DNA from: Marsupella aquatica
Taxonomy: Eukaryota > Plantae > Marchantiophyta
NCBI GenBank assembly: GCA_973895155.1
Contig: OZ316891.1
Span: 16,247,137-16,311,136 of the forward strand
DNA: 64,000 nt
Direction: 5' to 3'
The notes under the pieces: generated by a model
What the model was told of the DNA's origin: nothing
Databases searched by the model: none
Seen by the model: only the letters and a program-made list of their open reading frames with translations
Shown here: piece after piece, positions 20,969 through 53,189 of the stretch
How the letters are laid out: each line of letters starts with the position of its first letter
Position numbering within the stretch: position 1 is the first letter of the stretch
Program-made: the position numbers and the translations under genes

Positions 20969-21307
20969 GAGGTGTTTACAAAAGACAGCAAACAGGAAAC
21001 AGGATTTAATAACAGAAACTGGTAACAGGAAAAAAACTGGTAACAGGAAAATGGGTGGAATTTTTTTTTGAATTTTTTTTTTTTCGGTCGACCAGTTTTT
21101 TTCGCTAGCGCCCAGCGCTGCTAATAGTAGCGCCCAAAGCTAGCCAAAAATGTTGCATTGTTAATTTTTTTTGGAAATAACATGTTTTAGGAGATATTTT
21201 TAAATTGTCATTTTTCCTGGTAACAGTGATTTTTTCCTGGTAACAGCATATTAAAAACAGGAAAAAAAATTCTTGTTTACCTGTTTCCTGTCTCCGTCAC
21301 TATACCC
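20969..21307. mobile_element. Non-autonomous MULE (MITE-size, 339 bp)
   Basis: 9-bp TSD GACTAGAGG (20960-20968, 21308-21316). Removing it restores the CACTA peptide LDVYFQPLV-DELKLLW. Ends GAGGTGTTTACA and (reverse complement) GGGTATAGTGAC; GGTAACAG repeats; two central palindromes. Confidence 0.9.
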
Positions 21308-22941
21308 GACTAGAGGTTGGAAGTAAACATCCAAAAATTCTCTAGGGATCTGGCTTGGACTTGTATGTATTCATGACATCATCAAATTCATCCTTAGTAG
21401 AAAAATCAGATCACAAAGGTGTTTTGTAATTATTCAATGATGAAGAACAGTTAAGAATAATACCTCACCTGGCAGTATCATGACCATCCAAGAATATCCA
21501 TGCTTGGTGGCCAACCAAGGTGCAAGTTGAAGGTGTTGATGATGACAGGCCATATGCTGTAAGGGGTGGAATGTCCCTTCCCTGCAAACGGGCTGACTCC
21601 ATCCATGGCAAGTCCCAATAGTAAGGAGCGAGGGTCAGACATTTTATCAGAAAATTTTGTCCTTGCATGTTCCAAGCTGTCCCATCCACGGGACTAGTCA
21701 GAATCCCATCTGTTTGATTACTGCTATGCCATTGGTACAATTTTGCAAACTCAGGGTTTTGAAATGCCAATTTAAGTCGTGGAATCAATGGAAAATATCT
21801 CATCACCTGAAATACAAACATGCACATGAGTATCAACCATGAGCTATAACTAATTAGGAAGCTCTAGGACAATTCGACATTCATGTCTTAGAGATGATTT
21901 ACACCATCAACTTCACCACAATGACTATTGAATATCTCATGATCCTTAAAAGTTTAGACACACATGAATATTGATCCTGTACGTACACAGACATACGAGC
22001 TATAGCGTGTTAGTAAATTTATACCAGTTCACCTCATTTTCTAAATATTGCTTAAAACAGAGCCTAATAAATAAATGAGTGAAGGTATCTGAAGAAATGA
22101 ATAACTGGATGACGAATACTGACCTGACGAGGGGTTTTGCTGTTAGGATAATATCTTGATTCTCCGCATTCTGGACAACTGGTTATATTGGCGTGAAGTT
22201 CACGGTATAGAATGTGATGATTTGAGCAAGCATGGATCAATTGGTAATCAAGACCAAGTGTAGATATCATTTTTTTTGCTGCATATGATGAAGTTGGAGC
22301 CAGGTTTCCCGGTGGTAAGCTTTTCCCTGCCAACTTGTACAAATCGTTCATTGCAGATTCTGAGATGTTATGGGTAGTCTTGATTTTACTCATCAATAGA
22401 CAATATTTCCCCTTTGACATTGGAGCACCCTCATACAAAGGATCAGATAAATCTTGGTAAGGTAAATGGTTTGGTGGAAAATCTTGAGGGATTCTGTCAT
22501 CATCCCGGTCATCATCAACAAACTCATTTTCCAGTATGTCATCTACATTCAAGTCGGGGTTCAGAGGTGGTTCATCTTCCATTGTATGCTCATCAGGCAA
22601 TTGGAGTTCATCAAATTCATCCAAGTCCAAAGCGTATATGTCTCTGGTTACATGAAGATGTTCTTCAGAACCTTCTGAAATTCCAGGTTGTTGAGAATGA
22701 GCATTTGCAGGGATTGCAATAGGTCGGGCCATAGCTTCAAATTGAAGGCCACCAACAATCTACAGAATGATCCCACGTACATAAAATGGTGAATTGACAT
22801 TTAGTATCCAATTTACCAGCAACCTTAACAATGTAATACATTGAAATAAAAATGATCGCAAAGATTTACCAATAAGCTGTACAACAAGGTCGAATGGATA
22901 CTAGACAACTGCGACTTAAATACAGAGAATGTTGGTTCTTT

Positions 22942-23490
22942 TTATTTAACAAATGGATATAATGCAAAAAGTTCCTCTCCAGCAAGAATGGTTTTATACG
23001 CCATTGTCCAAATATGAGGAAGATCAATTGTCTTATGAAGACGAGTATTACGTTCCCATGACTCCTCCCACTCTACATTAATCATTCCTGGCATCTGAAT
23101 GCCACTGTTGATGTATCCGGCAAGATTCCAGGTATATGCTGGTGTGCCATCAATATATTGGGAACTTCTATAATGTGAAGTACTATGGGCATTGGCCATC
23201 AGAGTGTATGCTTTCATTGAGGGCCAAGTATGCACAAGCATCTCCCAGTTAGCCATTGGATACATTGGTCCAGCATAGGGGAAAAGGGACACATTCTGAC
23301 ATAAACCAGAACGGGTTTCCCGAACAACTATGTCTTCGGAAGCAAATAACCCGAAACCTGCTTGCACCCCAAGGGTGGACGGCTTAACCTCCCATTTTCT
23401 ACCCCAACAAGTAAATATCTCCTGAATGGGGATGGGTTGAGTATAACCATAGTGACGTGGATTATACCCTTCAACATAGACCGTACATGT
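22942..23490 (-). CDS. SET-domain (lysine methyltransferase-like) coding segment inside the CACTA transposase gene
   Basis: WEVKPSTLGVQAGFGLFASEDI, FPYAG, YIDG..NLAGYINS..NVEW, AYKTILAGEELFALY give the SET motifs in correct order. Frame is open upstream of the listed ORF to a TAG near 23500. Confidence 0.8.
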   Translation of the reverse strand, partial: TCTVYVEGYNPRHYGYTQPIPIQEIFTCWGRKWEVKPSTLGVQAGFGLFASEDIVVRETRSGLCQNVSLFPYAGPMYPMANWEMLVHTWPSMKAYTLMANAHSTSHYRSSQYIDGTPAYTWNLAGYINSGIQMPGMINVEWEESWERNTRLHKTIDLPHIWTMAYKTILAGEELFALYPFVK

Positions 23491-30232: not shown

Positions 30233-30439
30233 TATATATATGAGACAAGATGAAATGATCTTGGGCTGAACCAGATGTTTCATTCTCACCTTGACATACT
30301 TAGCAATTACTTTTGCTATATAGTATCAGGTCTACCAGAAAGTACCAACTTGATCTAAATTGCATTGTAATAACTCTGTTGTTTTCAATTTGAATAACTT
30401 TTTGAATGGTAACATCATAAGTTTGTTTTCTTTAGATAA

Positions 30440-32347: not shown

Positions 32348-33009
32348 GGGTATGATAGCCATGACAGAAAACAGAAAACCTGTTACCAGGAAATTTTTTG
32401 CTGTTAACAGTCAAATATAACTGTTACCAGTAAGCGATTCCCTGTTACCAGTTTTGCATCAACCATAGCCCTTTGGTCCGAATGAAAAACTACGCTAATC
32501 ACAAAATTTTTCTGAAGTGAATTAGGTTTAAAACAAACAATTATTGTGTGCCATCCGATGGATGAAGAGTACTAGCAATCCTCCCTTGCAACAACATTTT
32601 GATCTGGAAGATAACTGAACACGGTATGGGGACTATACTCAATGAAACATTCATTCAAATATCACTATTCGTCCAAGCTAAAAAGTGAACCTTAGGGTGG
32701 GACCCACCACAGAACAAGTGAAGAGTAGTGTCCAAATGAACTCAATCAAAATGATTTCACTTAAATGGACCGAGTACCATGACAAACAAATGACAAAACA
32801 CCTCCTAACGATTTATTTCAGAATAATTGAATAAACGTGGCTTGAAAGATAAAACATAATGATATCAACTTACACATTTTAAATAAAACATAGTGTAATG
32901 CTTACACTACACGCGTACATAATAAAAGTAGCGCCCGACGCTAACCAAAAAATACTGAATAAAACAAGTAACATATCCATTGGGTAAAGACAAAATAGTG
33001 ACTATCCGT

Positions 33010-36000
33010 TATATTGAACGACCTATACAGAAGTTTCGGCCCCTATTATAAGCCATTCAAGTTTTGCCTCTCCAAGACAAGCCTGACTTTGCCCACAGTC
33101 AAAATTGGTTGGCTACAAAGAGTCGACTCCTCAACCTCAAGTTTGAAAACATTTATGTACACCCAGTATAGATGTTTACAAGGCATGTATGACTTGCCAC
33201 GCGAATGTCATAGGAAGAAGTCCTCACAAGAGCAAGCAGGGAAGATACAAATTTGCACGAAGTACGTGCTTGGTGATCGAAGGTTCTCATGGGTTCGAAT
33301 TCAAAATTGCTTTCCAAAAGCATTTCCAGTCCGAACATTCCATTCCCCATCCAAACTCATCTCTTCTTGTCGTGCAGACTCCATTCGCTTAGTGTGACCC
33401 ACAGTGAGATTAGACCGAGGTCTTGAGTTCCTCCCATTCCGACTACCCAGCCGGACATTTGGCTCCAAAAACCTTATTGTTTCTGGGAACACGTTCACAT
33501 TTATCCTGAGGTCAAACAAAGATGGCGCAGATCGACTCGATCCTGTTGTTCGGGCTAAGACAAGTCCTTGCTCTTCGAGGAACATGATTTCAGAAGGAGA
33601 TAGGTTCGTACCCTTCAGAACAGGCAAAATTTCAGGAAGAGGAGGAAGCTGATGAACACCACGACGCGGACGACTCTTATAATAGGTTTGGTTTGGGCAG
33701 AACCAAATCATTTTGGAGATCGGTTCGCCCCTGAAGAGACGATGGCCCTTCACGACAATTCCAAAAACACCATCAGACAAATGGAAGCCAACCTTCTTGA
33801 TACGATTTTGACACTCATCGCGATCAGAACTCCCATTGAGTGTCCCATTACACTGGGGACTTGCTCCATACTTGGACGTCCGTCGCAGCTGCCACTGCCC
33901 CAGAGGGACATCCTTCTCGAGCACAATCGTGCGTGAAAGTGGATTCTGAAGTGAGGTTGGTGCACTGAGCAGAGGTTTTGTGGATCTTGTTGTACGGGTT
34001 GTTTGAGGGGTATTGTCTAGTGAATCAGTATCACCATCTGATGTGTCCATACCAGAGAGATTCACCACTCTTGTCACAGGATCATTAGAATTTTAGGGAA
34101 TGGAGGCAAAGTCAGTTCTGTTTAGGTTTTTCCTTTTCAAACCACGAGTATTTGGTGTGGTTGTGAGAACGGTGTCATGCCGATGGGAGTCTTGTGGAGA
34201 GACAGTCCCAGTTGCATGTCCCTTTCTCTTCATTGACTTGGTCATGATATCTCCGTTAAGGGGAGTACTTCTTTCCAAATCGAAGTCCGCCGCGTTGGAA
34301 AGAAGCATGTTGGTCGCATCTTCAAATAACCTTGGCGAACCTGCTTGATCGGCGGAATGGAACGCCAATTCCGATATAGTCGGTCCCTTTCCTCTGTTCA
34401 ACCCTTTTCGATATGCATTGTATCCTGCAACTTGAGACAGGGCTCGGTTTTGGTCCACTTTGCATGCTTCAAAAAGACCAACTTTTTTCTTTGTAGCCCA
34501 TGCCTTGATTCTGACCCTGTACAGTTTGGAATCAAGGCACCTTCTTCTGCACTTTTGCTCTGCCATAGTCCGAATGCAATAATCAGTACTAGCATTGTAT
34601 TACCAGCGCCTGGCGCTGGCTCCGACAAGTATTTATAACATACGTGAAATACAATTTAGATTATGATTCTGGAACTTTATGGACATGCTGGACTCAAATA
34701 CGAGCAAATCATACCAACGCCTAGCGCTAATATAAAGTTGATGGAATTGAAAGACAAGAGAGGAGATGGATGTCATACCACTCGAATAAAATTGCCCCAC
34801 TGGCGCCATCGAACAACCCACCAGGATATCCAGCTTTGTAGCATCATGAGCTTTCCAGGGACATAGTTTCCTGATTGCCACCAAACCAAATCTCTCAGGA
34901 CACGCGATACGCTACCACAACCGTTGGAGCGTTTCTTAGTTTCTCCCAAAGTCTCCGATGTTCCGATTGACATTCTTCAAGTACTCCTTCCTTGGAATGT
35001 CGATGGAAAGATTGATAAAAGTGAAATGCATCAGAGCGCTCCCTCTCCGGGTCTGGGTGTCCACCAAAAAAAACATTCTGCACAGCATTCCATCCAGCTT
35101 GTGCATTGTCCGCCATAAACCCTTGGATGACAACCTCCTGTAATCCATTCTCCTTGCAAACCTCAATCATAACTCTCCAAGCCTTTTTGAAAGACTCAGT
35201 GTCTTCACCTTTCAACTCGCATGTGAAAATTGTACAAAGTGCACGGTATGGTCATAGACATGCGCGCTAAAAGTAAACCAATCGGTTGTGATACGCTGCA
35301 TCACATCAAAACTGACCCAGGCTCCTTCGAGTCTTCCACCAGGTTGCATCTGTCTCAAAAGATCCACATCGGAACCGTGACCCTTCGTGGTCATTTTAAA
35401 GATGTGAGGCCTGTCGTCTTGACATCCCTGACCCGGGAGCAAATACCTTTGGAGAAATGACAAGTTAATCTTCTTTTGCATTTGCAAGAGAAAATCAAGT
35501 TCACCCCGACCCTTTTGGTCTATCCTAATGCTCCGACAAAGAGATGCAAACTTCTGGGGAGTGGAAAGTACCATCAGAGACTTCCATATTTCAGTTTCTT
35601 CGATATCGACCATGTCGTCAACATGTTCGCAGAGAGCTTTCACTATGGACCCTGTAGCAGAATTCAAGATCCCAGCTGGTTTTGCCAGAGGATTGGCTTC
35701 ATGATTTTTTTAAATTAAATCCTCAGCCATCTTCTCCGCACTCCTACAAAAGGTTTTTCTACCTGGATGGTTATGCTCACCTATATGAATCGCCAGGTGG
35801 GACATATGACTACATGTTTCCGCATCAAGTAATACTTGCGGGTACATATAGAACAAACGGGCAGGGCAGTACTTGACACAAAAAGGAATCTGATCACAAT
35901 AATGACACACAACACCGCCCTCTTCGATAAAAGATCCGACAGCATACTGACCACTAAGCTTTGGAGTACCCTGCCATGCCTTAGCATTTGCCTTCTTCTT

Positions 36001-36756
36001 CCTTTGGAAGTACTCGCAGGACTTGTGACATTCAATGAACCCCATACAGGTAACCTTACCGAATTGCCAAAGATTTTTTGGCTGAACGTTCGCGGTAGTT
36101 GGAAATATGCGTGTCCAAATGTAGCAATCTTTGGCACGGTCCATGTCCCTAAGCCTAGAGCCTTTAGAGAGCATCTTGTCAATGGGTGGCAATTCAAGCA
36201 CGACGTTCCCGTTGTACTTAGTTGGCAGACACGAAACTTGCTCATGTCTGAAATCACCCGTTGATATGAACCTCGATAACTCGCTATGACCAGTGGATTT
36301 GAGTAACGTATCCATTGCACTCCGCCGTTACACAACCTCCAACTGGTTAGAGCTTCCTGGAGTCTCACCTTTAATGACAGCATGTTGCGGGACTTTCATT
36401 TTCAACGTAGGACTTGGAGTGTGATCCCCATCTTCACTAGAAGAAATCTCGACAACATCAAATGGAACTTGGGGGACAATGGACGGTCCTTCATGTTGTT
36501 TTACTCGAAGTGAGTACAAAATCCCCGCGTATAGATGCCAAAACCGTTCACCATCATCCACATTGAATGTTGCTGCATCTTCGATGTCATCACTGGTTTT
36601 GAGCTCTCGAACAATGGCCTCAATATCATTCATCCTCAAATCAAATCTCCCGCAAAGGTATCTCTCCCGGACCTGCTTGTACGTGTCTTCCACAGGGACG
36701 GGGATGGTCACAATATCCCCAATCCCGAATCAGGATAGAACGATGGACCGAGACAT
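33010..36756 (-). pseudogene. MULE transposase (WRKY/GCM1-like Zn domain, DDE core, SWIM finger)
   Basis: CHYC..CPAR..HIGEHNHP; VSFDV; GFMADNAQAGWNAV..VF..AFHFYQS; C-terminal YFVQI..PACSCEDF..PCKHLYWV read at 33155-33270. Multiple stops and frameshifts. Confidence 0.85.
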
Positions 36757-37649
36757 TGCAATCGAAAACAAATAACGAGGGCTGTAATGTTTTGAGGAAG
36801 AAAAGTCTATGGTAATATGGAGCTTATATCAGTCGAACATGGGAACTTCACGTTAACAGATCCATTTGTATAAGACATAAAACATAGTCGACATAGGATC
36901 CGTTGGTGACATAAATGATTTTTGTTGTTTTCCCCGATAAGTCCGGATGTCAGATGCATACATAATGCCAAAAAAGACACCACAAAAATCTTTAATAGAC
37001 TCTAAAATATTGTATAGTTGGAACAATTTGAGTAGCGCCTGGCGCTAACTAAAATGTCTCCAACATAATATGCCCCAAATCTCGATATTCCATACTAGCG
37101 TCTGGCGAAAAACCCTCCAGATATCCATCAATACTATGAAATAATTGGATTGAAATGATCAATGAAAATGTGAATTCTTTTAAAACTATGGATGAAAAAT
37201 ACTCGTTATCACTAGCGTCGGGCGCTAGTATAGGATGCAAGTAATGTTTCCCAAAAACCATTAAAACAATAGACATTTCTTTAAATATGGGGTTGTTTTG
37301 ATGAAATTTATGTATTCGAGGCACCATTTAAGACCTATTGTCACGCGATTGACATGGGTCTTAACACCAAAAACGTCACTATGGGTGCCAAAACCATCTC
37401 CTTGTACCTGAGGATCACGAAGGGATGTTATGAAGGTCGGTAAACACCAATTTATGCCCTTAACACCAGACTATCATAGCAAGACTCTATCACACATCAC
37501 CCAAGCTCAATCCCAAGGAACCAAGGTTGGGGATCAGATCTGCACTCATGATAGTTCTGGTGAGAAGGGGTCTTCATATAGGGCCCGTACCCACAGGGCC
37601 TAGCGCTACGGTGCGCATAGGTCTATACGTATGCTTACTGTCATAGGTA

Positions 37650-39674
37650 TGTTTCTATTCCACCGCCGGAATGTACCCATAAACCAGTGACTCCTGACTG
37701 ATTCTCGGCTTAGGGACTTCTAAGCCATTGCCCCACCACTCTGCCATTCCACTCTCAGCAATCAGAGCTATGACAGTCCTCACCCAGCCCGCTTCAATGC
37801 ACCCTGTACACCTCTCAGTGGCGCTGCTAGTCCCATCATACACTCAGATTGCCTCACACACACACACACATCCATGAGAGAAATGAGGCCTGAGAGGAAA
37901 ACTCAATTAGATTCAAAGATGTGCACAATAGTTCATTGAGAACACTTGATCCGAACACTAGGGCGAAGGCTGTCTCCTCCAGATTGTGACGTGCTTGCCC
38001 TGCAAGCCCCATGCTTGCCATGCAAGCTCAATCCTGAACCTGAGCCCGACTCACTCCAGATTGCGACGGCAGATTGGACTCAAACCAATCCCGTACTTGC
38101 CTTGCAAACTCAATCCTGAACTCAACCTCCTTCACTGCACTTCATTCTTGGGGGCACATGCAGATCTCACACCTCCAATTCAAAACGTCAAGTTACGCAT
38201 GCATAGTTGACTCGACTTCAAAGCTGATACCAGGCCTAACGACGATCTATCCCAGACTGCAATGAGGCCCGGCCTCACGCTTGCCCTGCAAGCTCAGCTT
38301 TGGCCATAAATCCCTTAGTGCTCTCTACCAGACAAAGGCCGGGACTCCCCATGGATCACGTAGCCTTGCTAGACTGAACTATAAATGCTCCTCCTGCTGC
38401 CCCTCAATCAGTGTCTCAGCCTCCCTAATGTGCTCACCACAAATCACATTGAAATCCTCCCCACAGTTTACAATCACCAATACATCACCTATCACCAAGG
38501 CTCTGTATCGGGGGAAAAGAACCCAGTTGTGCTGCCCACTAGAAAGAGCCACAATCCAGCTCGCAAACCTAGCAACCCATTGTAGCTGTGAAGCTTGGCT
38601 GATTACTCCCTGAGTAATAGCACAACCAAGATCTCCCCAACACGCAGCGTCCAAGTCCAGCCTTGCTTGCACAGAGCTCCTCCCTGCTGCTCAGTCTAAG
38701 TGAGATCACACAAGTGAAGTCCCCCCCCCCCCCCCATTGCCTCTACCGGGGGGCTGCTCTATATACTCTCATACTGAGCCCAAATGGGTGGATACTACGC
38801 TGCTGGAGCCCCATCCCAGCCCTAACAGAGCCGCCACTATCTCTAACTACTGAACCCTAACTCGCAACTTTATTTCTATCTCGAATTGGCTATGTACTTT
38901 GGATTTGGCCCTCCTCCATGGTTTTTGCGAGCTTGCACCTCCTCTCCCAATTTCTCTATTCAACCATTTGCTGCGTGGATAGCAGCGTTGGAAGCGGCTT
39001 GAGCTCCTCTTTCCAACGAGGTCAATTATAGCCGATTTGGTCAAATACACAGAGAGTTATGCCCCCACAACCGAGAGGGGGTACTCACTGTTGCGCTAAC
39101 CCGAGTTACATAGCTAACCCGAGTTTGGCTAGCCTAGCTATCCTATCCTGAGAAGAGTTAACCCGTGGCCTCGGGCTAAGCCGCTATCCGTGTCCGTTGT
39201 CCGTGTCCGCTATCCGTGTCCGCTGTCCGCTATCCGTGTCCGTTGTCCGTGTCCGCTATCTGTGTCCGTTGTCCGTGTCCGTTATCCATGTCCGCTATCT
39301 GTGTCCGCTGTCCGTGTCCGTTGTCCGCTATCCGTTGTTCGTGTTCTGTGTCCGCTATCCGTTGTTCGTGTCCGTTGTCCGCTATCCGTTGTCCGTGTTT
39401 GTTTTCCGCTATCCGTTGTCCGTGTCCGTTGTCCGCTATCCGTTGTCCCGGGTTTAGTCTAACCCCAATCTAAATCCGCTAGCCACTAGCCACTATCCAC
39501 TATCCGTGTCCGCTAACCTCTATCCGTATCCGCTATCCGTGTCCGCTAACCTCTATCCGTATCCGCTATCCGTGTCCGCTAACCTCTATCCGTATCCGCT
39601 ATCCGTATCCGCTATCCGTGTCCGCTAACCTCTATCCGTATCCGCTGTCCCGGGTTACACACTAACCCGTCACA
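37650..39674 (-). mobile_element. LTR-like unit family C (2025 bp, no long ORF)
   Basis: On minus it starts TGTGACGGG and ends ACATTCCGGCGGTGGAATAGAAACA then TACCTA, the same terminal signature as A and B; TATA-like tract near 38760. Confidence 0.7.
39180..39650. repeat. Complex minisatellite of CCGTGT / CCGCTAT / CCGTTGT units grading into 32-bp units with CTAACCT
   Basis: Directly visible; explains the repetitive ORFs at 39190-39473. Confidence 0.95.
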
Positions 39675-40268
39675 CTAATAAGATCATATCTTTCCTAATA
39701 CACCTCCATTTTGAGAGTGTTTTATATCGATTTTACTCGCCTTGACCAGATCTTTCCAATGCTCTTTACAGATCCGGATTTTATGACATATTGAAAGAAA
39801 TATGGTCGCCGACCACCCGCGACATAGCTTTTTATTTCCCTAACATTCTAAGACTAGACTATGAACCACTAACCTAACTAACAACATGAAGCTACACACC
39901 CAAGACGTTCAGATTTTATCATGAGAACAATCACCATACCACACAGCTTCATATTCAGTTATGGAGACTCGCTTCCTCCTCTCTTCCCCAGCTTCCTCCT
40001 TTGTGGCCTTGACAGTGACTACCTCAACTGTGTCTGCCTTGGTTGTGCAGTCTTCAAGCTGAAATACCTTTATCCCTACTCTTAACGCCATGATTGCCCT
40101 TATTCTTTGTCACGTCATCGGCTGCGGCCTTAACTCAGACTTCAGCTTAGACGGGCACATCCCTCGTAAATCTGAGGGTTCGGGCAGGAAGGGAAGCACG
40201 TAATGCACCTTATTCTCATAAACTAGCGCTAAGTGCGCATACTGCTAACTACGGACACCTCCTAGGTA

Positions 40269-43200
40269 TGGTTTGTGTTCCGCCGCCGGAACATACCTTA
40301 GTCGATAGCAGGATCGACCCCGGCTTAAGGGCTTCTAAGCCTTTGTGCTGTCCGCCTTCGATCCGGATTCGATGATACAGGTCCTCAACCCGTGCTCGCA
40401 ACCACTTACCCGCAGGCTGCACCCTGTGCACGTCTCGGGTAGTGCGTTCAGCCTGGCGCTGCCACCCATATACGAGAAACCCACACACATACACGCGCAT
40501 ATGCATACAATCTCGATTTACACGAAGGAAAATGATGGGAAAGGATTTTACTACAAAGGGAACATATGCGTACACTTAGTTGACCCGACAGCCCCGGAAT
40601 GAACAGGTTCAAGGCCGAGGGTGCACACTACAACGGAGCCCGGCTCCGCACTCGCCCGGCGAGCTTAGTCCTACCCCCTCCCCTTGGTACTCTTTCATTC
40701 CCAAAGGTCGGGACTCCCCGCACATACTGCGGACGCCCAACTCTGCAACTAAAACCCCCCTGCCTCTACCGAGGGGTGCACTAAATACTAAGGGACGAGG
40801 GACGGGGTGTCCTCTCGCCGAAGATTTGCTGACTAAGGTCCTAACTAAGCTGACAATCAGGCCAGAAAACGGCTGTGTCTTATTAGAAGATCCTAATCTA
40901 TGCAGGCTTGACAGCACGGCCGCGCTGCTGTACCTAAGGCAGGTGCCTGTCCCAAGAGCCTGACTAAGCCAGTCCTAATCCTAATCTATTCCTACTCCGT
41001 TGCTAATGCCTGGCACGCTTGCCAGAGCCGCCCGAATGGGAGCGACCATCCCGCTGCCTTCGAAACCTGTCATTGTCCGCCTTGAGGAGCTGGACCTGGT
41101 CCAGCAGAGATTCGTTCTCTCACTTTGCCGCGTCCGTCTCCTCTACTGCCTCCTGACAAGCCTCCTCCAGCTGCTGGGCGTCACTTGTCAATTTACCCGC
41201 CAGCTGGTCCTGCTTCTCGGCCTCGGTTTGGAGCCGCGCCACCTCGGCCTGCAGCATGGCTATCTCCGCCGTGTCCCGTTGGGCCCATTCCTCGGCCTCC
41301 TCCAGGTCTTTCTGCCAGGTGACAGTTTGATTCTTCAAACTGTCAATCTGGTTCCGAAGTCATGTAATCTCGGCCTCGTTCCCAGCTTTGGCCTGTTCGG
41401 CTAGGGCGGTAAGAGCGTGCGCCTTTGCTAACAACTCATGGGCGGCTGCAACCTTGGGTCGTAGTTGCAGAAGCTCAGCCTCTTGAGCCGCAACTTCGTT
41501 CTTTAGGTACACGGACTCCACCCGGTACCGCTCTATCCTCTGAAGGGCCTCTGACTGGGCCCGACCTGCCTTTACAGCGGCAACCAACTCCTGATTGAAG
41601 AAACAGGCTACCTTCCGGGCCATGAACTCCCCGGTATCCCAGGCAATTTGATGAGAGAAATCTCCCAGAAGACCCATTTAGAAATGTACCCGGTACGAAG
41701 AGTTCCGGGTGTCCAGGTTGTGCCTGTCCGGAGTTGGGCATGGGCAGGCATCAACACACGCGGGGGCCGGGGCAGTGACGTCCAGCCCTGGGGACGTAAC
41801 GTTGGAAGGGGCTGGAGTGTCCTCCTGCAGCAATGTCCGGTCCTCCGGAATAGCCATCGGTGGGTCTTTGGGAGACCCTGTCTCGGGTAAGACCTCCGTC
41901 GTACCGACTTCTGTACTTAGCCCGGCTTGTTGGGTCGCATCAACGGTTGCGACAACCGACCCATCCGGTACCTCTTCGGTTACGACTACAACTACTTGTG
42001 GAGGGGGGGTGGGTGAAGCTGACGTGTCCGCTGGACTTCGGGCCTCGGGTTGTGGCCGTCTCTCCAAGGCCGGGAAAACCCACCTAGCCGGGACCAGCTT
42101 TGTAACGTTGACATGGGGAAGGGTTCGTCGATCAAACCGGGCGTACCACTCAAGAAGGATCTCGATGTGGCTAGCGAAATACGCCTTCCCGCCAATGTAC
42201 AGCGTCTTCCTTTGCCGCTCCATCTCTTCATGGAACTTCTTAGCGAAGTATGACGCCCACCTCCTAGGTCGATAGTTCTCGACCTGGATAACCTGGGCGG
42301 CGGAGATCTCCCCCCGGGGTTCCATCATGTGGAGGGCGTACCTTTGGAACTCCAGTCGCTCAGCTACCTCGGGGATGAGGCAGGTCTTCATCACGAACCC
42401 GTTGTCCACTGCTCCCTCTGAGGGAAAACTTGAAGATTGGTACTTGGCTCCCTTGCCCCCGGGAGCCCGTGATTCGACTCGATGGTCACCTTCGGGTAAC
42501 CCGAAGATCATCCTGAGCCGTTCTTCCGTGAGGGACATACTCCTTCCCCGCAGCCGAGTATGTTGACGCGCGTCGTCATAATTCCTGACGAACTCCGTGA
42601 TGTCCTCCCCGTAGTACCTGCAAGTGTTCCAGGGGAAGGAGGCGAGGTGCTCGAATCCCTGAGTCTTCAGGTACACCGCATGCTTGGGATGGAGGATGTT
42701 TTTGTGAACATTTTCCCCCATGCGGTGCATCGTCACCTTGGCCACGGCTACCGTGGCCAACGGTAACCCGGATGCAGTGGCGGATTCCTTCCTCTTCTTG
42801 CCCCGTGACTGGCTCGGGGAAGGTGACACCTCCCCATCCTCCCGATCGGGCCTGGGTAGTGCCACTGCCGTTAGTAACGGGCCCGGGTCGGCCACGGTCA
42901 CCATGTTGTCTGCCGGGGCCGCTCCTGGGGTCAGAGCAGGGGGTGGGGACGATATAGTGTCGGCCCCCTGAGCGCTTGTTCCTCTGGGCTGCCTGGTCAA
43001 GGGTAGGGTAGCCTCATCATCATCGCTAAGATCCACAACGTTGATGACGGAGCGTACTTGTGCTGGCTGGGCGATCGGTGGTGGGGTTTGGCTAGGCTGC
43101 GGCTGAGGCTGAAGCTGAGCCTGAGGTTGTATGGGTATGGGTACGGGTAAGACTGAGTTGGTCATGTTGGTTGTTGGCCGAGTTCCGATGAAGCTCTATA

Positions 43201-44099
43201 GGTGCTGGTAGAAGTTCTCCGAAGCGAGTGCAGACGACCTTGTCGAACGGGTAGTGCTGGACTCGCTGTTGATGATAGCCCGAACCTGAGCAGGGATGTG
43301 GTCAAAGTGATGTCGTTGCAAGTCGATCATACCCGGGATATTGAAGACCTCATCCGGAAGCCGAAGCAATGCTTCCCAGAACCCGATATATTTGTCTCCG
43401 TTGAAGAAGTACCCGGATACCTCTGCTGGTTGATAAAGCTCACTCTGAGACGGGTAGTCAAAGCTAAGGATGTAGTGGTGTCGTCCTGCTAGGCGGATGG
43501 CTCTCTCATACTCGCGTTCGATCTCGTATCGGCGCGGGTTGGCGTGTTTCAATGAGTCGGCCAAGTGCCTTCCGGTAGATAGGAATTGCGTCCAGAATCG
43601 AATGGCCGAGCTGGAGAGGATCGTGTGCGACATTCAGAAGAGATAGTAGTGGCGACTTAGAGCGAACAAGAGAGCTAGGGTTGAAGCTGGCGCATGGACT
43701 GATGGATTGGTGCACTACAAAGGGTTGGCTCCCCTTTTATACCTTGAGGCTTGTCGATCCCCCGACGTCTCCTCGACGCCCATAGGCTGAACCGCTCACG
43801 CTTGTGGTGTGCCGGCCACTCCGCCGGTCTGAGTCAGCGCGTGTCAGTGGCCGCTTCCTTAAGTTCGTTATACGGACCCGAGGGAGGGGCCCCTCCACGC
43901 TCGTAACCCGGGTGTGCGAATAGCGACCAGCCGCCAGTCCGAACCTGAATTCCCCCTTATTGCCTAATGATATCCTACCCATAATGATTACCTAAATACT
44001 GTCGTTATGCTAATAATAGTGGCCTAAGACACTCCTAACGCGCATGCCGAGTGCAATTAGACCAAATCACTCATTAACCGCTGTACCGACGGCATCACA
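40269..44099 (-). mobile_element. LTR-like unit family A, copy 2, followed by a short leader (about 39675-40268)
   Basis: Reverse complement of 4124-7950; continues past AAACCA into TACCTAGGAGGTGTCCG. Confidence 0.8.
41003..43633 (-). pseudogene. Unit-A accessory protein, copy 2
   Basis: ORFs 43196-43633, 41678-43165, 41360-41677 and 41120-41338, with lesions mostly different from copy 1. Confidence 0.65.
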
Positions 44100-44579
44100 T
44101 TCTTGCCAGCTTGCTAATTGTTATGCGGTATCAATAGCTACTCCTTGCATACAGCAACCTAGTTACTCAGATTATAGAATAAGGACCATGTCATCGGCGT
44201 CACACCTATTCTATAGCTATTGTTTTTACTAGCGCCGGGCGTTGCCATGACAATCATCCAAATTATCTACTTCAAGGGAAGTTGTTTATAATAGCGCCCG
44301 ACGCTAGTGTTCCGAGTGAGGGAGGAAAATGGTCATAACGGTAACATTTAACGGTAACTTCTGAGTTCCGTGTGTGTTACACTTCTTCTACCGCTTGATT
44401 TAGCTAATTAAGTTCTCAGGATACATACGTTGGAATCCGCCAAACTTACAAGCTTCTCGCTTTAATCGAAGAGTTCCGCTGAACTCCACCCTCCTTCTAG
44501 AATATATTACACATTGAGAGTTGATTAGAGTTCCATAATTTCATTGTACGATAGTTCGTACGCTTCTAGAAGGAAGACG

Positions 44580-47500
44580 ATGGAGGTATTCTCCTCTTCA
44601 TCCAGAGGGTATAGTGTTGTTCCTGACCAAGAGCGAGCTTATTCTGAATCCTTGCAGTCTTTGTTTACTGGTTCAGTTTATACACGTCGTGTAACTCGTT
44701 CCACAAAGTTGCTGCCTCCTACTTCTGTTAGCGTTGTTTTGGTTCCTAAATCTCTGTGTAGAAAGATGGAAAACCTTGACACGATTGCGATCCAAGATGT
44801 TTCGGACTGCGCACTCGCAGAGACTGATCTCATCTCAAAACATGTCATGTGTTTTGGAAAGGATTCTCGTGGATTTGACAAGGAGCCGCCTCGAATCCCT
44901 CTATGCCGATTGGTTCATATGGAGGTGGTTCGTACTTTGCAGAAAGATAGCTCTTCCATCGAGAAGCTGAAAGACTCGTTTTGCAGTATGGGTTACAATT
45001 CATCCATAGGAATGCGTTTCTATGTGCAGCCAACGGATGAGAATGGAATTGTTCTGACCTATACCCAGGAAATTTGTGAGTCATGGGATCCAATTTGGCA
45101 ATTGGAGAACGAGAAGTTTAAGGCTGAATGCGAGGCCGATCCAGATTTTCTTGTGTTGAAGGATAAGATGTTCTCTATCTTCGATGGAAATCACAGGCTG
45201 TACTCATGGACGCTTGTTACCAAGGAGAACCCTGACAATCCAAAATACCATCCTCGAGTGCTCTGCACAATATTTAAGGGAGACAAGGGATCTCTTATTG
45301 AAATTGAGGCAGCTATGCACACCGTGAATCAGTAAGTTCTCGTTCTTTTTCGGTACCTTCTTTGAATCTTGCGAGTGTTCTATTTAAGAGCGCTCGGTGC
45401 TGGTTATAGATAAATTGTACTTTGACTCTAACTCGCTGCATCTCTTCATGTAGGCTTGGCCAAGCAGTTGTTGAGCCATCCTGGATTCTCGATGCAGATA
45501 GAATTAAACAAATTCTGGCGCATGACCTTGAGTATTATAGTAAACTGATTGACCCAGCTAATTTCAAGAAGTTTAAGAGCATTTGGCTAAAGACTCGGAA
45601 GGGGTCATGGTATACAAAGAAGATGCCACAGGAAGCTCTTGTTTACATTCTATGTGAGAATAAGATAAAGTCCTATTCTCACCAATTCAAGCTTGACATG
45701 GAGGCAGCCGAGGCTCAAGGGAGTCCCTAGTAGGTGGACGAGATTTCCAAACGCCATGCGGCCATGATGAAGGACGCAACCAAAGACTGGGCAGTGAAGT
45801 CATCAAAAATTACGCCCTTGTTAAGTCCTGAATTTGAAGATTTTCTTAGTACATGTGCAGAAATGTATGTTGTCACAGAGAGAAACAAGAGAGAGAAGAA
45901 GCCTGACGCCGTCGTATGTACAATGGACCGCGCCCAATTGTTCACTGCTGTTTCTGCCCTAGACCCAAAGTTGCGGAGCATCCTACTTGTGGCACATTGC
46001 AATCCTGAGCTGCGGAGACAGTTTTTCCACCCGACAAGTGTTAACGATGACCCAGTCAAACAATGGTGTCATACTTGGATCACTTGGAATAGTGTAGAGG
46101 GAATTGCTGTCGGCATGTTACATTCATGTCTGCGTGAAGTAGAGCAAACTATGCCCGCCACTAGATTGGAAGAGTGGAAATGTGGTTCGTTTGATGATCT
46201 CGTTCAGTTTGTTACAAATAATTCAAGAGATATGGTGATTCTGTGAAGAGTAAGTTCTTTCACACTATGTGGCCTTCAAAGTATCCAGACAAAGAAGACT
46301 ATACCCAGAAAAACCAGAAGCGGGCTAAAAGGTATCTTTACAGGTTCTACATGCACATGGAGGTAACCAAACCTGATTACTTCTGGGCATATCCTGCAGC
46401 TTTCATGAAGTGGATTACAATAAGTGAGGATGACGCCATAGCTGATTTGTACTCCATGTACCCAGCGGAGGGCATATTTCCTCCAAGACTACGACAGAAT
46501 GGGAGAGAACTCACTGCCCCTGGTATCTAGATACAGATAGATGGGATTCTCCTTTTGATCAAAGGGAGAAAGATGCATTCCATAAGCTTTCAAAGTCCCA
46601 CATACCAGCAAAAATTGTGTCCGACATGAAGCAGGGCCTGCTAGACGATGTAGACAAGTCTGCCACTGACTTGCAAAGTATTTATGAAACGACTATTGTT
46701 CATGTGGACCGAAGTCGCAAACCTCAAGCGAAAGCAAAAGCGGAGTTAGCAGCACCAAGCGAGTCAATGAAATCTGGGAGGAAAAGTGAGTATAGTGTTC
46801 CCTAGTATGGCCAGCACTTGGCGCTGGCTTGAACTATCATGCGAATTCACATTTCTTTCTACATTCTTAGGCCTTTGTTGTAACCTAAGTGATTTGCATT
46901 TGGTTAGCGCCTGGCGCTAGCTTGTTTGAATACTCAGGATTTACTTGTTCTAACTAGGACCTATTGGTAATTTAGGAGGGAGGAAGTCTAATACTGCGGG
47001 AACAGGAGATACTAAAGTGGATGCTACACCTGAAGTTTCTGAGGCAAACACCGGAGCTCGATCGGACCCCATTACTCCTGTCGACAAGGGGAAGGTAATA
47101 GTTCCGGTTGACGCCACAAGTACCAAGAAGAAACGAAAGAGAGCTATCGAAGGTGGACCTTCTTCAAGGGAGAGTGTTGCAGCATCTGGTGTCCAAGGTG
47201 AATTTGGAAACTTCAAAACTAGAGTGTCTCGTCATGCCATGGTTGAGACAAGCATATCCGAATTTTTTGACTCGACTTTCAACAAGGGGGAAAAACCTGA
47301 ATGGGTTAGTAATGTGGAGAAGTGGGGGAAGGATCTCGTTAAGTCGGGATATAAAGAGAAGGGTGTTGTGTGGGGAGGAAAAGAAAGATTGTTTGGAGTG
47401 GATGCGGGTTTCATTTACCTACCAACCGGGTTCAAACCAACGATCATAGATAAGAAGGTTCCTAAATGGAACACTCCAAATCACTCCATGGCTAGATCTT

Positions 47501-48761
47501 TTTTCAAGTCCATGGATCCATTTCTATCAGATGATGGATTCTTTGCAATTCTACACAATGGGGAGTATGATCCCATGTCTCAAGTCATTGCTGCTTGTCA
47601 GGAATCGAGAAAATTTCAGTGCATATGCACGCATAATGTTGTAATGTATGTCCCGATGTACGCGGCAAAGACAGACCGTCAGGTAATCATGTACTCTTAA
47701 CTATGTCGCATTTTGAAATATAACTCGTTTAACCTGGAGTTGCCAACTGACACTTGGGATTGCTTTCCGCAGATGTTTACCCTCAGGCTGGACATATTTG
47801 GTCGAATTAATGGGAAATGCAAAATTCCCAAAGACCCTAAATTCCGTCCACTCTCCATCAGTGAGGACCCCTCGGTCACCAATTTGATCGGACTCCCTTC
47901 TCTCAAATCCGATCCATTCCCGCAAATGGAGTTTTCTGGAAATGCTCGCCTGTCTGTTGGGTTTATGCAATCTGTCATTGAGCTTGTCACCCGACCTCGT
48001 GATATTTTTATGGATTGGACTGCTGGGGCTGGAAGCTCCTTCATTGCTGGAGACTTCTCCGGGAGGTTTGTGCTCGGGATAGAACATAGAAAAGAATTTA
48101 TTGAAACCACTTCGAAGGTTTTCATGGATTTGTTATCTCCCAAAGAGATTGCGGTTTTACCTCCACCTATTCCTATTGTCGACAGAAAGAAGCGAGATAA
48201 GCTTCGGTCGGTACTCAATTTTGATTCTGATGATGAGTCCAGTGAAGGTGGAGATGGAGAGGAACAAGGTACAGGGGACTCGGAGGAGGAAAAGGAAGAA
48301 CCTCGTCGATCTCCTGATGAAACCGATAGTGATGACTCTTCCGAGTAATGTTCATAAACTCGTAAGCTTCTTTCTCCATTCCCATCAATTTATAACATTG
48401 ATGTGTTGTTTTAGAGAAAGGCACCTAACTTCTTGGATTTTGTTTGATCAGGTCAGAGTGGAATGCGAGGAGACGTTTGAAACTGCGAAGGAGGGTTGCT
48501 AGACACAACATAGAAACACCAGACAAACCTTTTGTTCTTCCCTCCTATGCAGAGAAAGCCGCAAGGAAAGCTGAGAGTACAAGGACGCTTTGCTGGGAAA
48601 ACAAAGGTCTTCGGTTACAAAGGGGTGTTGACAGGAAGTTCATTAAACATCCTTATGTTGATGACTTCTCCCGCAGCCAGTACGTAGATGACGAGGCTGT
48701 GTCCACGGACAAATCCGAGAGTACAGATTCTGGTTCCGAATCAGAGTTTGTAGAATTGTGA
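44580..48761 (+). pseudogene. Spliced gene: ParB/Srx-like N-terminal domain and beta-class N4C/N6A DNA-methyltransferase-like C-terminal domain
   Basis: IPLCRL..VR..IEKLKDSF..GY and FSIFDGNHRL (ParB-type GxxR); VDAGFIYLPTG..W..FFKSMDPFLSDDGFFAILH; FMQSVIELVTRPRDIFMDWTAGAGSSFIAGDFSGRFVLGIE (motifs X-I-II). Predicted introns 45332-45453, 46786-46957, 47683-47772, 48345-48451. Stops at 45728 and 46528, frameshift near 46243. Confidence 0.75.
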
Positions 48762-48916
48762 CACGTATTGAGGAATTTAGGGAGTAATTTTTTACCAGCG
48801 CTTGGTGCTAGTACCAACTTGTATTCAAATCCTCTCATTGAGTCCTTATAAATTAATGTCTGATTCCTTGTGTTTTTTACAACGGGACACGCTTCCCACG
48901 CCAATCACCTGCTGTT

Positions 48917-50363
48917 CCTCCTTCAAGATCTTCTTCAGTTGGTTGAGGAGGTACCCGTTGTAATCCCGGCTTGGGTCTGGCCTTTCTGCCAGGTAGACCT
49001 GAGCCTTGCCGATCTTTGCCCTCGGCAAGTTACAATGCATGGTCACCCGCAAGAAATCGATCATCTCTCCGATGTGCGGGTTGGTGCAGGTGTTCCGGAA
49101 GAAGCCATTCTTCATTGATGGTCCTAGGAATGACCGGAACTCCTTGTCAGGTAAGGTCTTCCTGGTATCAACCTTGGTCTTATTACCCATCGGCAAGCCA
49201 AACACCTCGGCAATCACCTAGGGAGTGAGATAGAAATCCTTCCCATACACCCTCGTGGAACTGGTCTCGGGTTCCCATGATCCTGTGAATTCTAATAAGT
49301 CTGAGTTCGGCACCTCCGGCTTCAGCCATGATAATCTTACGAAGGCTTCCAAGCCGGATCCGGCCATGAAGCCCTGGTACTTCTTTATCTGCATGGCCGT
49401 AAAGCATGCATCCTCCTCCCGTGCAAAATGTAATTGCACTTCCTCTGGTAGGATCGCCGCCCAGCCTTTCCAGGTGTCATCCTTTGTTGGAATGGCATTG
49501 ATGGGATCAACCTCCTCCTCTTCGGCTTCTCCCTGCCTCCTGTTCTGCTGCTCTGCTGGCTTCCTTGGTGCCGCCGACCTCGTTCGTTTTGCCGGGGTGG
49601 CCTCTTCGTTGTTGTTTCCTTTCCTCTTCATCTCGGCTGCCATGGATGTTTCTCCTAGCACAGTTGCCTTTGTCCACCCCTCCGTGCTACCCTTCAACTC
49701 CCAGTGCGCGTCGTTGCAGCAGTTGATGGCTTCCCAAATGCCGACGATTCTGTCTTCGCAAAACAGAAGGTCATCGAGCTGATTGGCAGTAGGAGTCCAC
49801 AAGAACTCAGCCTTGATGAGTTCTCCTCCTAAGAAGGCGGACTTCTGCAACTCCCACAGTCGAGCGAGCTCCTGCTATTCTCGAGCTGCTCTCTCCGATT
49901 CTTCGTCCTCGTACGTAAGTCCTAATGTACTTAGTTGCCCGTTCAAACAGGCATCCCCAAAAATGTGCCGCTTGATTGACGTTGCTCATACCCTCCTTGA
50001 CTCGATCGTTGGTATTTGCTCCCGCCCTGAGTGCTTGCTTAAGCAGCTGACAGTAGTTGGCCTTCCATAGTCGTCTGCCCAGTTTGTGCTTGCAAATGAG
50101 CCACCATTCCTCGCGAGCGGTCCTTACCCCTCTCCTCCTCTGGTCTTTCCTCCCGTTGGTTACCTAACCACCGATGCTTAGCGCGCCCTAACCCTAATCG
50201 TGTTTTCTCCCCCGATGTCCTTACCTCCGGCCACGGCCCGGGTTCCATAGTCACCCTTAATTGTTTATATTTTCCTTGTTTTTGTTACTATACTAATGTG
50301 TTTATAGGGTACACCTCCATTTCCCCACTTAACTGGCCTAGTGATTCCTGGCTAGGCATCACA
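48917..50363 (-). mobile_element. LTR-like unit family B, 5' half, with N-terminal part of accessory ORF
   Basis: Starts TGTGATGCCTAGCC on minus. Encodes GLEAFVRLSW..DLLEFTGSWEPETSSTRVYGKDFYLTP*VIAEVFGLP, which aligns with the unit-A domain. Confidence 0.75.
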
Positions 50364-51249
50364 CACCAGTTGAGGTGTTGACTTATCAAGGAACTGAGTT
50401 CCGTGGAGAGTTTGAGAGTTTGTGCAAGCAAGCTCTAATTGATCATTGTACTACTTCTAGTGACCATCCTGAGGCAGATGGATTGGCTGAGAGAGTAGTG
50501 CAAACTATAAAGAGAGGATTGTGCAAGTATGGCTTGCAGGTTGGTCATCTAGGAGATTGAGATCTCCAATTACCTTGGTTAGCTATGGGCTACTGTTTTA
50601 GTCGGCAAGCATCACTTGCATCCTTCTCACCTTATTTCTTGCTCTATGGTTGAGAGCCAGATTTGCTAACAGCTATTTGTCATGATACTGCATTGGTTGT
50701 GAACTTGGATAATCCTGATGTTTGGGTCAAGGTTTTTTCAGAGAGGGCAAGGATTCTTGAGAGAGTCATGCCCATGGATGGCCTTTGACAACCTTGCCAT
50801 TACCCAACATCGTGATACTTTGCGGTATGCCACTATTCGTGGAGGAGGTTATCATGTGAGGATTCAACGATTTCATCCTAGTGATTATGTTTATTTGCAG
50901 CGGACAACACCAACTACACTTGATGTGACCGTAGGTTGGACCATTTTACATGTGCGTGAAGTGTTGCATTCTGGTGTCCTGATGTTGGAAGGGCATGATG
51001 GTATGGTTTGGAAGGATCATGTGCGCAACTGTGCGCCATGCCATCTAGCTTCCAAACATTGATGGTACGGTGGATCCAAGCTTAGCACATGTTTGTGCTA
51101 GTTTGAAGTGTATGTTGTGTGGATCTACTCAGGGAGAAACTACGTACTATGTTCATTGTGATAAGTGTTCTAGAGGATGACACATGTTGTGTTTGACACC
51201 ACCATTGCAAGTGATTCCTAGTGGATCATGGTTGTGTCCTGAGTGTTGA
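50364..51249 (+). pseudogene. Gypsy integrase C-terminal part ending in a PHD finger
   Basis: QGTEFRGEF, DHPEADGLAERVVQTIK, FSPYFLLYG, then CMLC..[30 protein letters not shown] at 51109-51246. Confidence 0.85.
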
Positions 51250-53189
51250 TGAATCCGACTAGTTATCAGTTTGTGTTCTCTTGGAAGATATGGATTACAG
51301 GTAGGTGATCGATGGGGCTCACTTGCACTCGACCTCCTAATCTTCACACCTAAAAAGGTGTATATCAACCTTGTACAAATCATGGCTAGCTAGAGTTAGG
51401 GGACCCTACTCCCAACTAGGGGGGCGATTGTGGGAATTGGACATGAGTTCCACTTGTATTTCATTATCTTGTGTTTGCGATGTGGTAGTGTGACTATGTT
51501 TGGATGTATGTGACAAGCGATCTATGTTGTGTAGCGATGTGTATGCACATGACAGCTGTCACACCATTCTAGGTAGTGTTAGAGTGTACCATACGATCTA
51601 GATTCGTAGGGTATAACTACCGTGCCAGGAAATAGGAAAAAGAAAACAATAAACAGTAAATAGTAAACAACAAATGGATGATAATTTTTTGAGATTTTTT
51701 TTTGGAATTTTTTTTTTGTTGGTTTGTATTTTTGACATTTTTTATTAGTACCCAAAGCTAGTAATAGTAGCGCCTGACGCTAGCCAAAAATGATAGTTTT
51801 TAAAAATATTTTGAAAAATTTGAGTTTTAATGAGACATTTTTTATATTTCATTTTTGCTCGTAATAGTAAAGTTTTGCTCATCTACTTACTATAATATAC
51901 AATCCCGCCTTTTTGTGCTCATCGTCCGCTTACAAAATTCACTTTTGGAGGGAACTCATTATTACCATTGGATTTTAAACTTAAATTTTCCTGCCCATCA
52001 GATCTGTGTAAGGAAGAATAAAGAGTTTGTCCTAGCCTGAGGCACGGATCCATGGGCTTCCACCCACACCTAGACTCATATACAAACATCTAGAAAAAGG
52101 TCATTGGGAGTTGAGTTGACATGTGGCTATCATGGGTAGATGGGTCTGACAAGAAAATCTAAGTAGACCCCACTCTAAGTAGACCCCACATGATTGCCCC
52201 ATTCACGTAAAGTAAGAAGTATAGACAACGTACAATACAAATTAAGTTGTGAGTTCAATAGGGATGATTTATAGGAAAGTGGAAAAAAATTAAGTCTACT
52301 ACGAGTAGTGAAAACATTGTTTTTTTCTAATCTCTATAAAGTACTTTTTCCAGGTTACATTAACATTCAATCCTATATTCTTTATTGCAACAACCTTATT
52401 GACCAAAGACACAATGGCCCCAAGAATAAAATGGCCCCAACAATGAAATGGGCGGAGTGACAAATGATTGTAACAATAAAATGGTTATAAGGACAAATGT
52501 GCAATGCAAGTTAGGGCAATGGGATGTCATATTTCAAATCACATTATAAAAACCTATCCCATCTCAAAGAGTTAGTGTAATCTACAAAAGTGGAAAAGGA
52601 AGGAACAAACCAATACCATCAATATATTTCAATGATTTTGACACCCTTGGATTGAGTGAAAGGGATCACCTATGGAAGTGAATACCATGGATATTTTTGC
52701 TCTTTTTTTGGGGGGGTGGAAATTTTACATTTATTCCGCGTGAACCCCACGGATGGGGGAACCAGCAGGCCAAACGGCATCATAAAACCTCAACGCCCAA
52801 AGGAGGCAATAACAAAGAGTTACTCAACCAGGGTCACCAGATCAGGCAAAGATTGCGAAGCCGTTCTTCTAGTGGTCTATGCAACAAGTAACAGCTAGGG
52901 AATAAGCACTAAAAAGGCACGGTAGGTCAGCATAGTGAAAGTATAAAGTGTCAAAGCATTGTCTAGTACTGAAGTAATCCACCTAATCAGTAAGAAGAGG
53001 GTGTATACTGTAACGGGAAAAAGGAAAAAACCAAGGCATGAGCAAGGGCCACCAAGAGTGGTGCAGCTATAAGCTACAGGGATTGAACACAGTGCGGGGG
53101 CAGTGGCACTGTGAATGAGGAAATCACGGGAGTAACGGTGTCAAATGAGAAGACAAAACTCCCAGATAGCCACACAGTATAAATCAATC

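Follow-up and report, generated by a model that had tools for sequence, protein, structure and literature searches.

A Mutator-like transposon of the liverwort Marsupella aquatica carries a 19-bp palindrome that, at a probability we put at about one half, is a family-specific site for the product of the transposon's accessory gene and confers protection from silencing of the kind described for VANC. The element lies in a 64,000-nucleotide stretch (assembly GCA_973895155.1, contig OZ316891.1, positions 16,247,137 to 16,311,136; hereafter the window), which is a nest of transposons. Judged by the MULE-type (Mutator-like element) DDE transposase encoded by its gene A, the element is Mutator-like; the divergently oriented gene B encodes the accessory protein, and both genes are pseudogenes. 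Our interpretation is based on the enrichment of the palindrome, its placement in noncoding DNA, its conservation in one intron, a separate word at the element termini, and a different palindrome array in a related locus, L001.

About 16 copies of the palindrome had been listed in the original prediction, and all motif counts given here refer to the window. TAGCGCCNGGCGCTA was matched 14 times at ≤3 mismatches, as compared with 0.75 ± 0.91 (maximum 4) in 100 shuffles of the window; 13 of the matches were on the list. The remaining one, at 37594 (3 mismatches), lies within a nested long terminal repeat (LTR) element and scores 5.2 by the weight matrix described below; it was rejected as a family site. 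The consensus could be widened to 19 bp, RCYAGCGCC-N-GGCGCTRGY, and the extended 19-mer RCYAGCGCCNGGCGCTRGY gave 12 matches with 0.06 expected. A symmetric weight matrix was trained on the 16 listed sites, with leave-one-out scores as a control and 60 shuffled windows as background. Fourteen of the 16 sites are strong, with matrix scores of 16.7–27.3 and leave-one-out scores of 13.9–26.6; the best score in the shuffled windows was 15.7. All 16 positions thus hold the word or a decayed form of it, but two are at background level when taken alone, namely 37096 (3 mismatches, leave-one-out score 7.7) and 51746 (5 mismatches, 9.4), the latter backed only by its equivalent place in the second of two miniature inverted-repeat transposable elements (MITEs). 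Sites 45388 and 46812 carry four mismatches each.

Within the window, the proposed confinement of the palindrome to one element family was borne out: the highest scores outside the list are 11.1 and 10.2, and the weight matrix found no strong site in the remaining ~54 kb, itself almost all transposon DNA. The further claim that the palindrome is absent from the Copia, long interspersed nuclear element (LINE) and CACTA-proper sequences holds with weighting but not with a plain four-mismatch threshold, which gives seven unlisted four-mismatch matches elsewhere in the window, three of them in the LINE (54917, 56559 and 56658; the first scores 3.7). Because of these background matches, the palindrome can be called absent from other elements only when the matches are weighted. 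The 50-base flanks of the sites, those of the MITE pairs aside, are mutually unrelated (identity at most 24/50, mean 15.2), and an origin of the sites as fragments of a larger inserted repeat was therefore rejected.

The sites also occupy the noncoding positions claimed for them. All 12 sites of the two-gene element are noncoding, and noncoding DNA makes up 28% of its 9,669 bp (P = 2.7e-7). The promoter between the divergent genes is split by a nested 6.9-kb LTR-type insertion that is not part of the element family. Contigs in three of four public runs join across this insertion; with it discounted, five sites therefore share one 951-bp divergent promoter. Their arrangement is nearly a mirror image: two centers are 283 and 346 bp away from the predicted gene A ATG, and two others lie 281 and 343 bp from the predicted gene B ATG; the center of the third site upstream of gene A (37213) is 463 bp from the gene A ATG. 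The other seven sites comprise one 3' of gene A, two in its intron, one and two in two introns of gene B, and one 3' of gene B. Intron 1 of gene B is confirmed by identical splice junctions in L001, and the remaining introns are predictions from splice signals, stop codons and homology gaps, the gene A intron joint being found in one run. At ~48886 the element is broken off by the start of an LTR-type repeat, so that its right end and second target duplication are not in the window. As a separate observation, contigs of three of the four runs contain a joint 47678–47771 across the last methylase-domain intron, which might come from intron-less copies or from spliced-RNA contigs.

Conservation was assessed by aligning contigs of the four runs, which come from two studies of a kind not given and possibly include the source sample, to positions 46770–46970. 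This yielded 31 variant rows, in which variants below 5% are unlisted. Depth-weighted diversity in the two intron sites is 0.009 (15-mers) and 0.010 (19-mers), compared with 0.046–0.049 in the rest of 46795–46940, a ratio of 0.2. Site permutation gave corresponding P values of 0.026 and 0.013, the use of window pairs 0.029 and 0.018, and Fisher's test 0.094 and 0.033. Two mismatches of site 46812 are consensus letters in 100% of the aligned depth in all four runs, and in one contig the site is perfect while its flank has diverged. In this one intron, the sites are thus conserved among related copies, being about five-fold less variable than their surroundings (P 0.013–0.03).

A search for related loci gave 117 candidate stretches in metagenome contigs, of which one, L001 (1,931 bp, protein 64% identical), was confirmed; no related locus was found in viral contigs, where the motif was scanned for as well, or in prokaryote genome contigs, and there was no phage match. 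Intron 1 of L001 is 818 bp long, compared with 122 bp in M. aquatica, and does not contain our palindrome (best matrix score 9.8). The original prediction expected relatives with gene B to carry the palindrome; formally, L001 does not, in the one intron that it covers. The same intron instead contains 14 AGC-N6-GCT and 5 AGC-N7-GCT palindromes, with ~0.6–0.7 of each expected, and AGC-N7-GCT is absent from the L001 exons. Because a different palindrome array occupies the same intron, a family-specific site fits better than no site, and the array would fit family-specific sites that have the outer AGC/GCT bases in common. Part of the array is a degenerate 20-bp tandem repeat. Between 415 and 1010 of L001, it changes gradually from AGC-N7-GCT palindromes at the 5' end into 20-bp tandem units containing AGC-N6-GCT, perhaps a spacing in transition.

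The protein encoded by gene B is predicted to contain a ParB/Srx-fold domain with the motif DGNHR, a helical region, and a degenerate fold of the beta-class N6-adenine/N4-cytosine (N6A/N4C) methylases. Its nearest named relatives are liverwort proteins from Riccia sorocarpa and Calypogeia fissa, and structure models were built on Riccia homologues that are ~25–40% identical over the matching parts. In the P0062 model, six ParB/Srx-family structures match over one range, residues ~77–257: KorB (Z 7.5, root-mean-square deviation [rmsd] 2.9, 95 residues aligned), Pnob8-like ParB-N (6.4), PadC (6.1), SerK (5.7), Srx (5.5) and SbnI (4.8). The individual Z values are middling, yet six members of one superfamily agree. 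An Atlas search also returned ParB/Srx clusters, and in 11 sequences the residues D-G-N-H are invariant and the R is conserved in at least 90%. The region that follows is all-helical and confidently modeled in the Riccia protein. The C-terminal domain is modeled as a beta-class amino-methylase fold and has the SAM-binding motif I, with CcrM as the best Foldseek match (E 6.5e-4) and M.MboIIA at Z 7.6 (rmsd 4.3, 157 aligned); on a window exon of gene B, PF01555 was matched at E 0.0017, short of the cut-off. Searches of Protein Data Bank sequences with two profiles gave nothing meaningful, and in a viral-structure library the ParB and methylase matches were weak, all of them above E 0.001. Of the ParB-methylase-like protein that had been proposed, both folds are thus predicted in the Riccia homologues, but no helix-turn-helix (HTH) was found, and in the clade of the window the catalytic motif IV is lost.

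We hypothesize that the 19-bp palindrome would be the address of the family, a double-stranded site to which the gene B protein would bind as a dimer in the shared promoter, the introns and the flanks. The bound protein would allow both element genes to be expressed despite host silencing, in the manner of VANC in VANDAL elements. Both the choice of gene B rather than the transposase as the binder and the anti-silencing effect are what we infer from these data.

Several points weigh against this interpretation. The folds were modeled on Riccia proteins and not on the broken gene B of the window, and every ParB-fold Z is below 8. Pfam gave no ParB match on the gene B exons or on eight homologues; no HTH was matched behind the ParB fold and no HTH family was matched to the helical region, with the KorB match ending at chain residue 150. 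Motif IV of beta-class N6A/N4C methyltransferases is (D/N/S)PP(Y/F/W), and the corresponding residues are YLPT here, FLPN in Calypogeia, ALPT in P0019 and D/N-[MIL]-P-[TS] in Riccia. With this motif lost, the clade of the window is probably catalytically dead, and an active methylase in this clade was rejected. The conservation test covers one intron, picked after one variant had already been seen, and depends on depth-weighted contigs of two studies, one perhaps the source sample, with sites that are linked and not independent. Two predicted introns of gene B (47683–47772 and 48346–48451) have no site. L001 is a single 1.9-kb contig with no transposase on it, its spacing is mostly 1 bp shorter, and its array may be an inserted satellite. 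Finally, the AtMu1c transposase alone has been reported to bind its cognate motifs, those of the non-autonomous BRODYAGA2 included, and to induce hypomethylation (bioRxiv 10.64898/2026.08.24.746577, as far as its available text goes).

The last point also favors an alternative in which gene B is a bystander and the internal palindromes are secondary or regulatory binding sites of the transposase. In line with it, both MITEs retain a pair of sites and no DNA-reading domain was identified in gene B. The transposase itself is recognizable: 25 of 30 Atlas matches of gene A are MULE clusters (PF10551; best 0.94, 163 shared features), and the pattern D...D...xxxH, which we take to be that of MULE transposases, is visible in the translation, although Pfam gave no MULE match on the broken gene A pieces. 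The termini, however, hold a different word, CTGKTAMCAG, all eight exact window copies of which lie within ~100 bp of termini and none internally (five one-mismatch matches occur elsewhere); the palindrome is located 135 bp to >4 kb inward, within introns and the promoter. Transposases usually bind subterminal repeats of this sort, and CTGKTAMCAG is the likelier transposase site of the two by its position. The internal palindrome therefore represents a second class of site, with the transposase less likely to be its binder. Peaks of AtMu1c on its own copies likewise fall at terminal inverted repeats, according to the available text (bioRxiv 10.64898/2026.08.24.746577). On balance we regard binding by the transposase as unlikely, though as the most probable of the alternatives. 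CTGKTAMCAG is itself an imperfect palindrome, and its ~21-bp repeat at the left end corresponds to two helical turns.

The two MITEs resemble the left end of the element, and in both the pair of palindromes, 22 bp apart, stands at the center of the inverted arms. MITE 1 has the G-starting termini of Mutator-like elements and is flanked by a target-site duplication of 9 bp (up to 10 bp; 20959–20967 and 21307–21315), and no matching duplication was found for MITE 2. The retention of the palindrome in MITEs may reflect exploitation of the site or passive inheritance at the fold-back center.

It is rather improbable that the element exploits a host factor of transcription or chromatin by recruiting it to the sites. 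Transposons can amplify the sites of host factors, and the promoter-proximal mirror arrangement would suit such a role, but the other ~54 kb, although almost all transposon DNA, has no strong site, L001 uses a different word, and we know of no plant factor that fits a 19-bp palindrome with odd spacing. We consider it still less probable that gene B binds the sites not as an anti-silencer but as a KorB-like autorepressor or copy-number brake, or that it marks the element with N4C or N6A. The closest fold match is indeed the plasmid repressor KorB, five sites lie in the divergent promoter, and the Riccia homologues retain the first Asp of motif IV. The clade of the window does not have this Asp, however, making marking unlikely here, and the intronic and 3' sites are less in keeping with a simple operator than with a role in spreading or protection.

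The least credible reading is that the palindrome acts as a hairpin in RNA or single-stranded DNA, for example in splicing or processing, or that it is a neutral by-product of slippage and template switching. The perfect 19-mer folds as RNA at -14.7 kcal/mol, the L001 array is partly tandem, and the MITE pairs sit at a fold-back center, but 5 of the 12 sites are in intergenic DNA, most arm changes affect one side only and show strand symmetry (21 of 35 being C>T or G>A; T1C accompanies A15G in two sites and one side alone changed in four), no Rfam family reached the gathering threshold in 20000–53000, and conservation among copies speaks against neutrality.

Returning to binding by gene B, its predicted product resembles the clamps of ParB-parS, KorB-OB and VirB-virS in the modeled ParB/Srx N-terminal fold with a GxxR P-motif and in the palindromic sites. 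Unlike the CTP clamps, it has no detected central HTH, no ParA, the motif GNHR, and 19-bp sites with odd spacing; no ParA family was found among the 31 of 125 window open reading frames scanned, and the visible element, with its right end outside the window, has genes A and B. VirB is described as a ParB-like anti-silencer that loads and slides (bioRxiv 2023.06.01.543266), and orphan ParB folds as binding CTP, ATP, GTP or nothing detectable, with a preference that is not predictable (bioRxiv 10.1101/2025.10.10.680097), both from the available parts of the texts. Nucleotide-gated loading and sliding of the gene B protein is possible. A more elaborate scenario, which we consider doubtful, would have a land-plant transposon lineage use a nucleotide-switched ParB clamp of bacterial type, which would load at its own 19-bp palindromes and spread over the element. 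The catalytically dead methylase fold carried with it would block host silencing by reading or shielding cytosines; this would be a eukaryotic counterpart of VirB-virS, with an address that co-evolves by family and is pirated by MITEs.

Among plant systems, VANDAL21 resembles the element in organization. VANC21 binds noncoding motifs of VANDAL21 (PMC5735166; PMC10398659), and from the available text both cases involve a Mutator-like element with an accessory gene and short family-specific noncoding motifs (in introns, intergenic and terminal DNA) that differ between related families. The VANC motifs are, by the same partial accounts, 8–9 bp, non-palindromic and tandem, and VANC binding and demethylation were shown experimentally. 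Gene B has no sign of VANC homology and has predicted ParB and methylase folds instead; the VANC-type Pfam family, presumably DUF1985, was matched neither on the gene B exons nor on the eight homologues. We infer that the element works like VANDAL/VANC; it is not a VANC member, a ParABS system or a canonical methylase.

The system is less new than the original prediction implied, the same idea being in print for algal transposons (PMC12477816; bioRxiv 10.1101/2025.02.11.637652; available portions). The Ectocarpus element Sola1-1_Ec32 has an accessory gene of ~1,100 amino acids on the strand opposite the transposase, in which a ParB-like domain is fused to an N4C/N6A methylase, and whose product was suggested to bind the element that carries it and to modify it (PMC12477816). 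Compared by description, the element here is a Mutator and not a Sola element, from a land plant and not a brown alga, and its motif IV is lost; the available account of Sola1-1_Ec32 gives no target motif (PMC12477816). PAG3 of red-algal Plavaka, Mutator and Zisupton elements is likewise a ParB-like accessory protein with inverted repeats nearby, the adjoining arrays being its proposed sites (bioRxiv 10.1101/2025.02.11.637652). In the accessible part of that text, PAG3 is fused to a 2-oxoglutarate oxygenase, the methylase is on a separate gene, PAG2, and the arrays are tandem and adjacent; here ParB and methylase folds are predicted in one gene, and the sites are single and dispersed over introns, promoter and flanks, tandem only in L001. 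With a ParB-like and a DNA-modifying fold, a DNA transposon and inverted repeats, the element fits the proposed class of algal ParB-type accessory genes. The algal PAG3 and Sola1-1_Ec32 proteins were not among the named homology matches of gene B, and the algal sequences were not compared directly.

Two other lines of work touch on the methylase fold. Marchantia MpDN4MT1a/b are active host enzymes of N4-methylcytosine and, like gene B, liverwort proteins related to prokaryotic amino-methyltransferases; the available text mentions neither a ParB domain nor a transposon origin for them (bioRxiv 2021.02.12.428880). In chlorophytes and chytrids, Iyer et al. described ParB-HTH-fused methylases that derive from phages, the gene B family being unmentioned in the accessible part of the article (PMC4738411).

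Table 1 Features of the Mutator-like element and its derivatives in the window (positions counted from the first nucleotide of the window).
Feature	Position	Strand	Evidence or remark
MITE 1, 339-bp non-autonomous derivative with degenerate inverted arms	20968..21306		sequence, arm alignments
Terminal word CTGKTAMCAG, four copies in MITE 1, candidate transposase sites	21019, 21037, 21217, 21237 (span 21019..21246)		exact match
Palindrome pair in MITE 1 (15-mers at 21106 and 21128)	21104..21144		scores 24.2 and 19.6
Left end of the Mutator-like element (GGGTAT...)	32348..32451		likeness to MITE ends
Terminal word CTGKTAMCAG, four copies at the left end, ~21-bp period	32380, 32401, 32421, 32442		exact match
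Palindrome 3' of the transposase gene	32927..32945		score 23.5; 25-bp core in common with MITE centers
Gene A, MULE-type DDE transposase pseudogene (stops and frameshifts)	33301..36757	-	translation; Atlas; predicted intron 34778-34560
Two palindromes (34604, 34715) within the gene A intron (predicted)	34602..34731		weight matrix; joint 34567-34764 in run X3
Three palindromes upstream of gene A (37033 perfect, 37096 weak, 37213)	37031..37229		weight matrix
Nested LTR-type insertion, TG...CA, 5-bp duplication CCTAT	37339..44204		empty-site joint 37332-44204 in 3 of 4 runs
Second insertion inside the nested LTR-type insertion	~40102-44098		joint 40101-44099 in 3 of 4 runs
Two palindromes upstream of gene B (44230, 44292)	44228..44308		weight matrix
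Gene B, accessory pseudogene, divergent from gene A	44580..48761	+	homology, predicted folds
Predicted exons of gene B	44580-45331, 45454-46785, 46958-47682, 47773-48345, 48452-48761	+	splice signals, stops, homology gaps
Palindrome 45388 in intron 1 of gene B (45332-45453)	45386..45404		score 16.7; intron position common to L001
Palindromes 46812 and 46905 (perfect) in predicted gene B intron 46786-46957	46810..46921		conserved in related copies
Palindrome 3' of gene B	48794..48812		weight matrix
MITE 2, decayed relative of MITE 1	51609..51906		69% over 191 bp
Palindrome pair in MITE 2	51746 (weak), 51768		weight matrix

Several features of the neighboring sequence were recorded. A SET-domain-like open reading frame at 22942–23493 on the minus strand (PF00856, E 6e-4, short of the cut-off) lies just upstream of pieces of a CACTA Tnp2 transposase (20345–22759); in algae, accessory genes with SET domains have been reported for Plavaka and HarbingerS elements (bioRxiv 2025.02.11.637652, available text). 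The second CACTA-side gene region, 27000–32000, has a CpG observed/expected ratio of 0.06–0.20 compared with 0.2–1.3 elsewhere, an internal duplication with a 585-bp period, and a ~95-bp degenerate repeat array at 30480–31110. Two inverted copies, 96% identical, of a 3.8-kb LTR-type element occur at 4124–7950 and 40269–44099, with a long open reading frame that has no Pfam match, and further LTR-like ends starting with TGTGATG are at 45–193 and 50217–50364. A 13/20-bp tandem array is present inside the nested element (39135–39660), and at 60500–61930 there is another array, ~1.4 kb of 18/19-bp tandem repeats that have no relation to the palindrome.

According to the Bostrychia paper, no transposon other than VANDAL is known to bind its own sequence and modify it (bioRxiv 2025.02.11.637652), and two 2025 papers, in their available parts, propose self-binding by ParB-type passenger genes of algal transposons, as a proposal only (PMC12477816; bioRxiv 2025.02.11.637652). 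Judged by titles and abstract openings, no land-plant description of such an element was found in the literature searched; the preprint supplements may list motifs or more families. The M. aquatica element extends the pattern of ParB-type passenger genes to land plants. It offers an exact 19-bp candidate site with evidence of selection on it; the terminal word provides an internal control for specificity, and L001 is a relative whose word differs. Should the gene B protein bind and spread, a clamp of the ParB type would be operating on eukaryotic chromatin, and it might serve as a tool for sequence-directed unsilencing.

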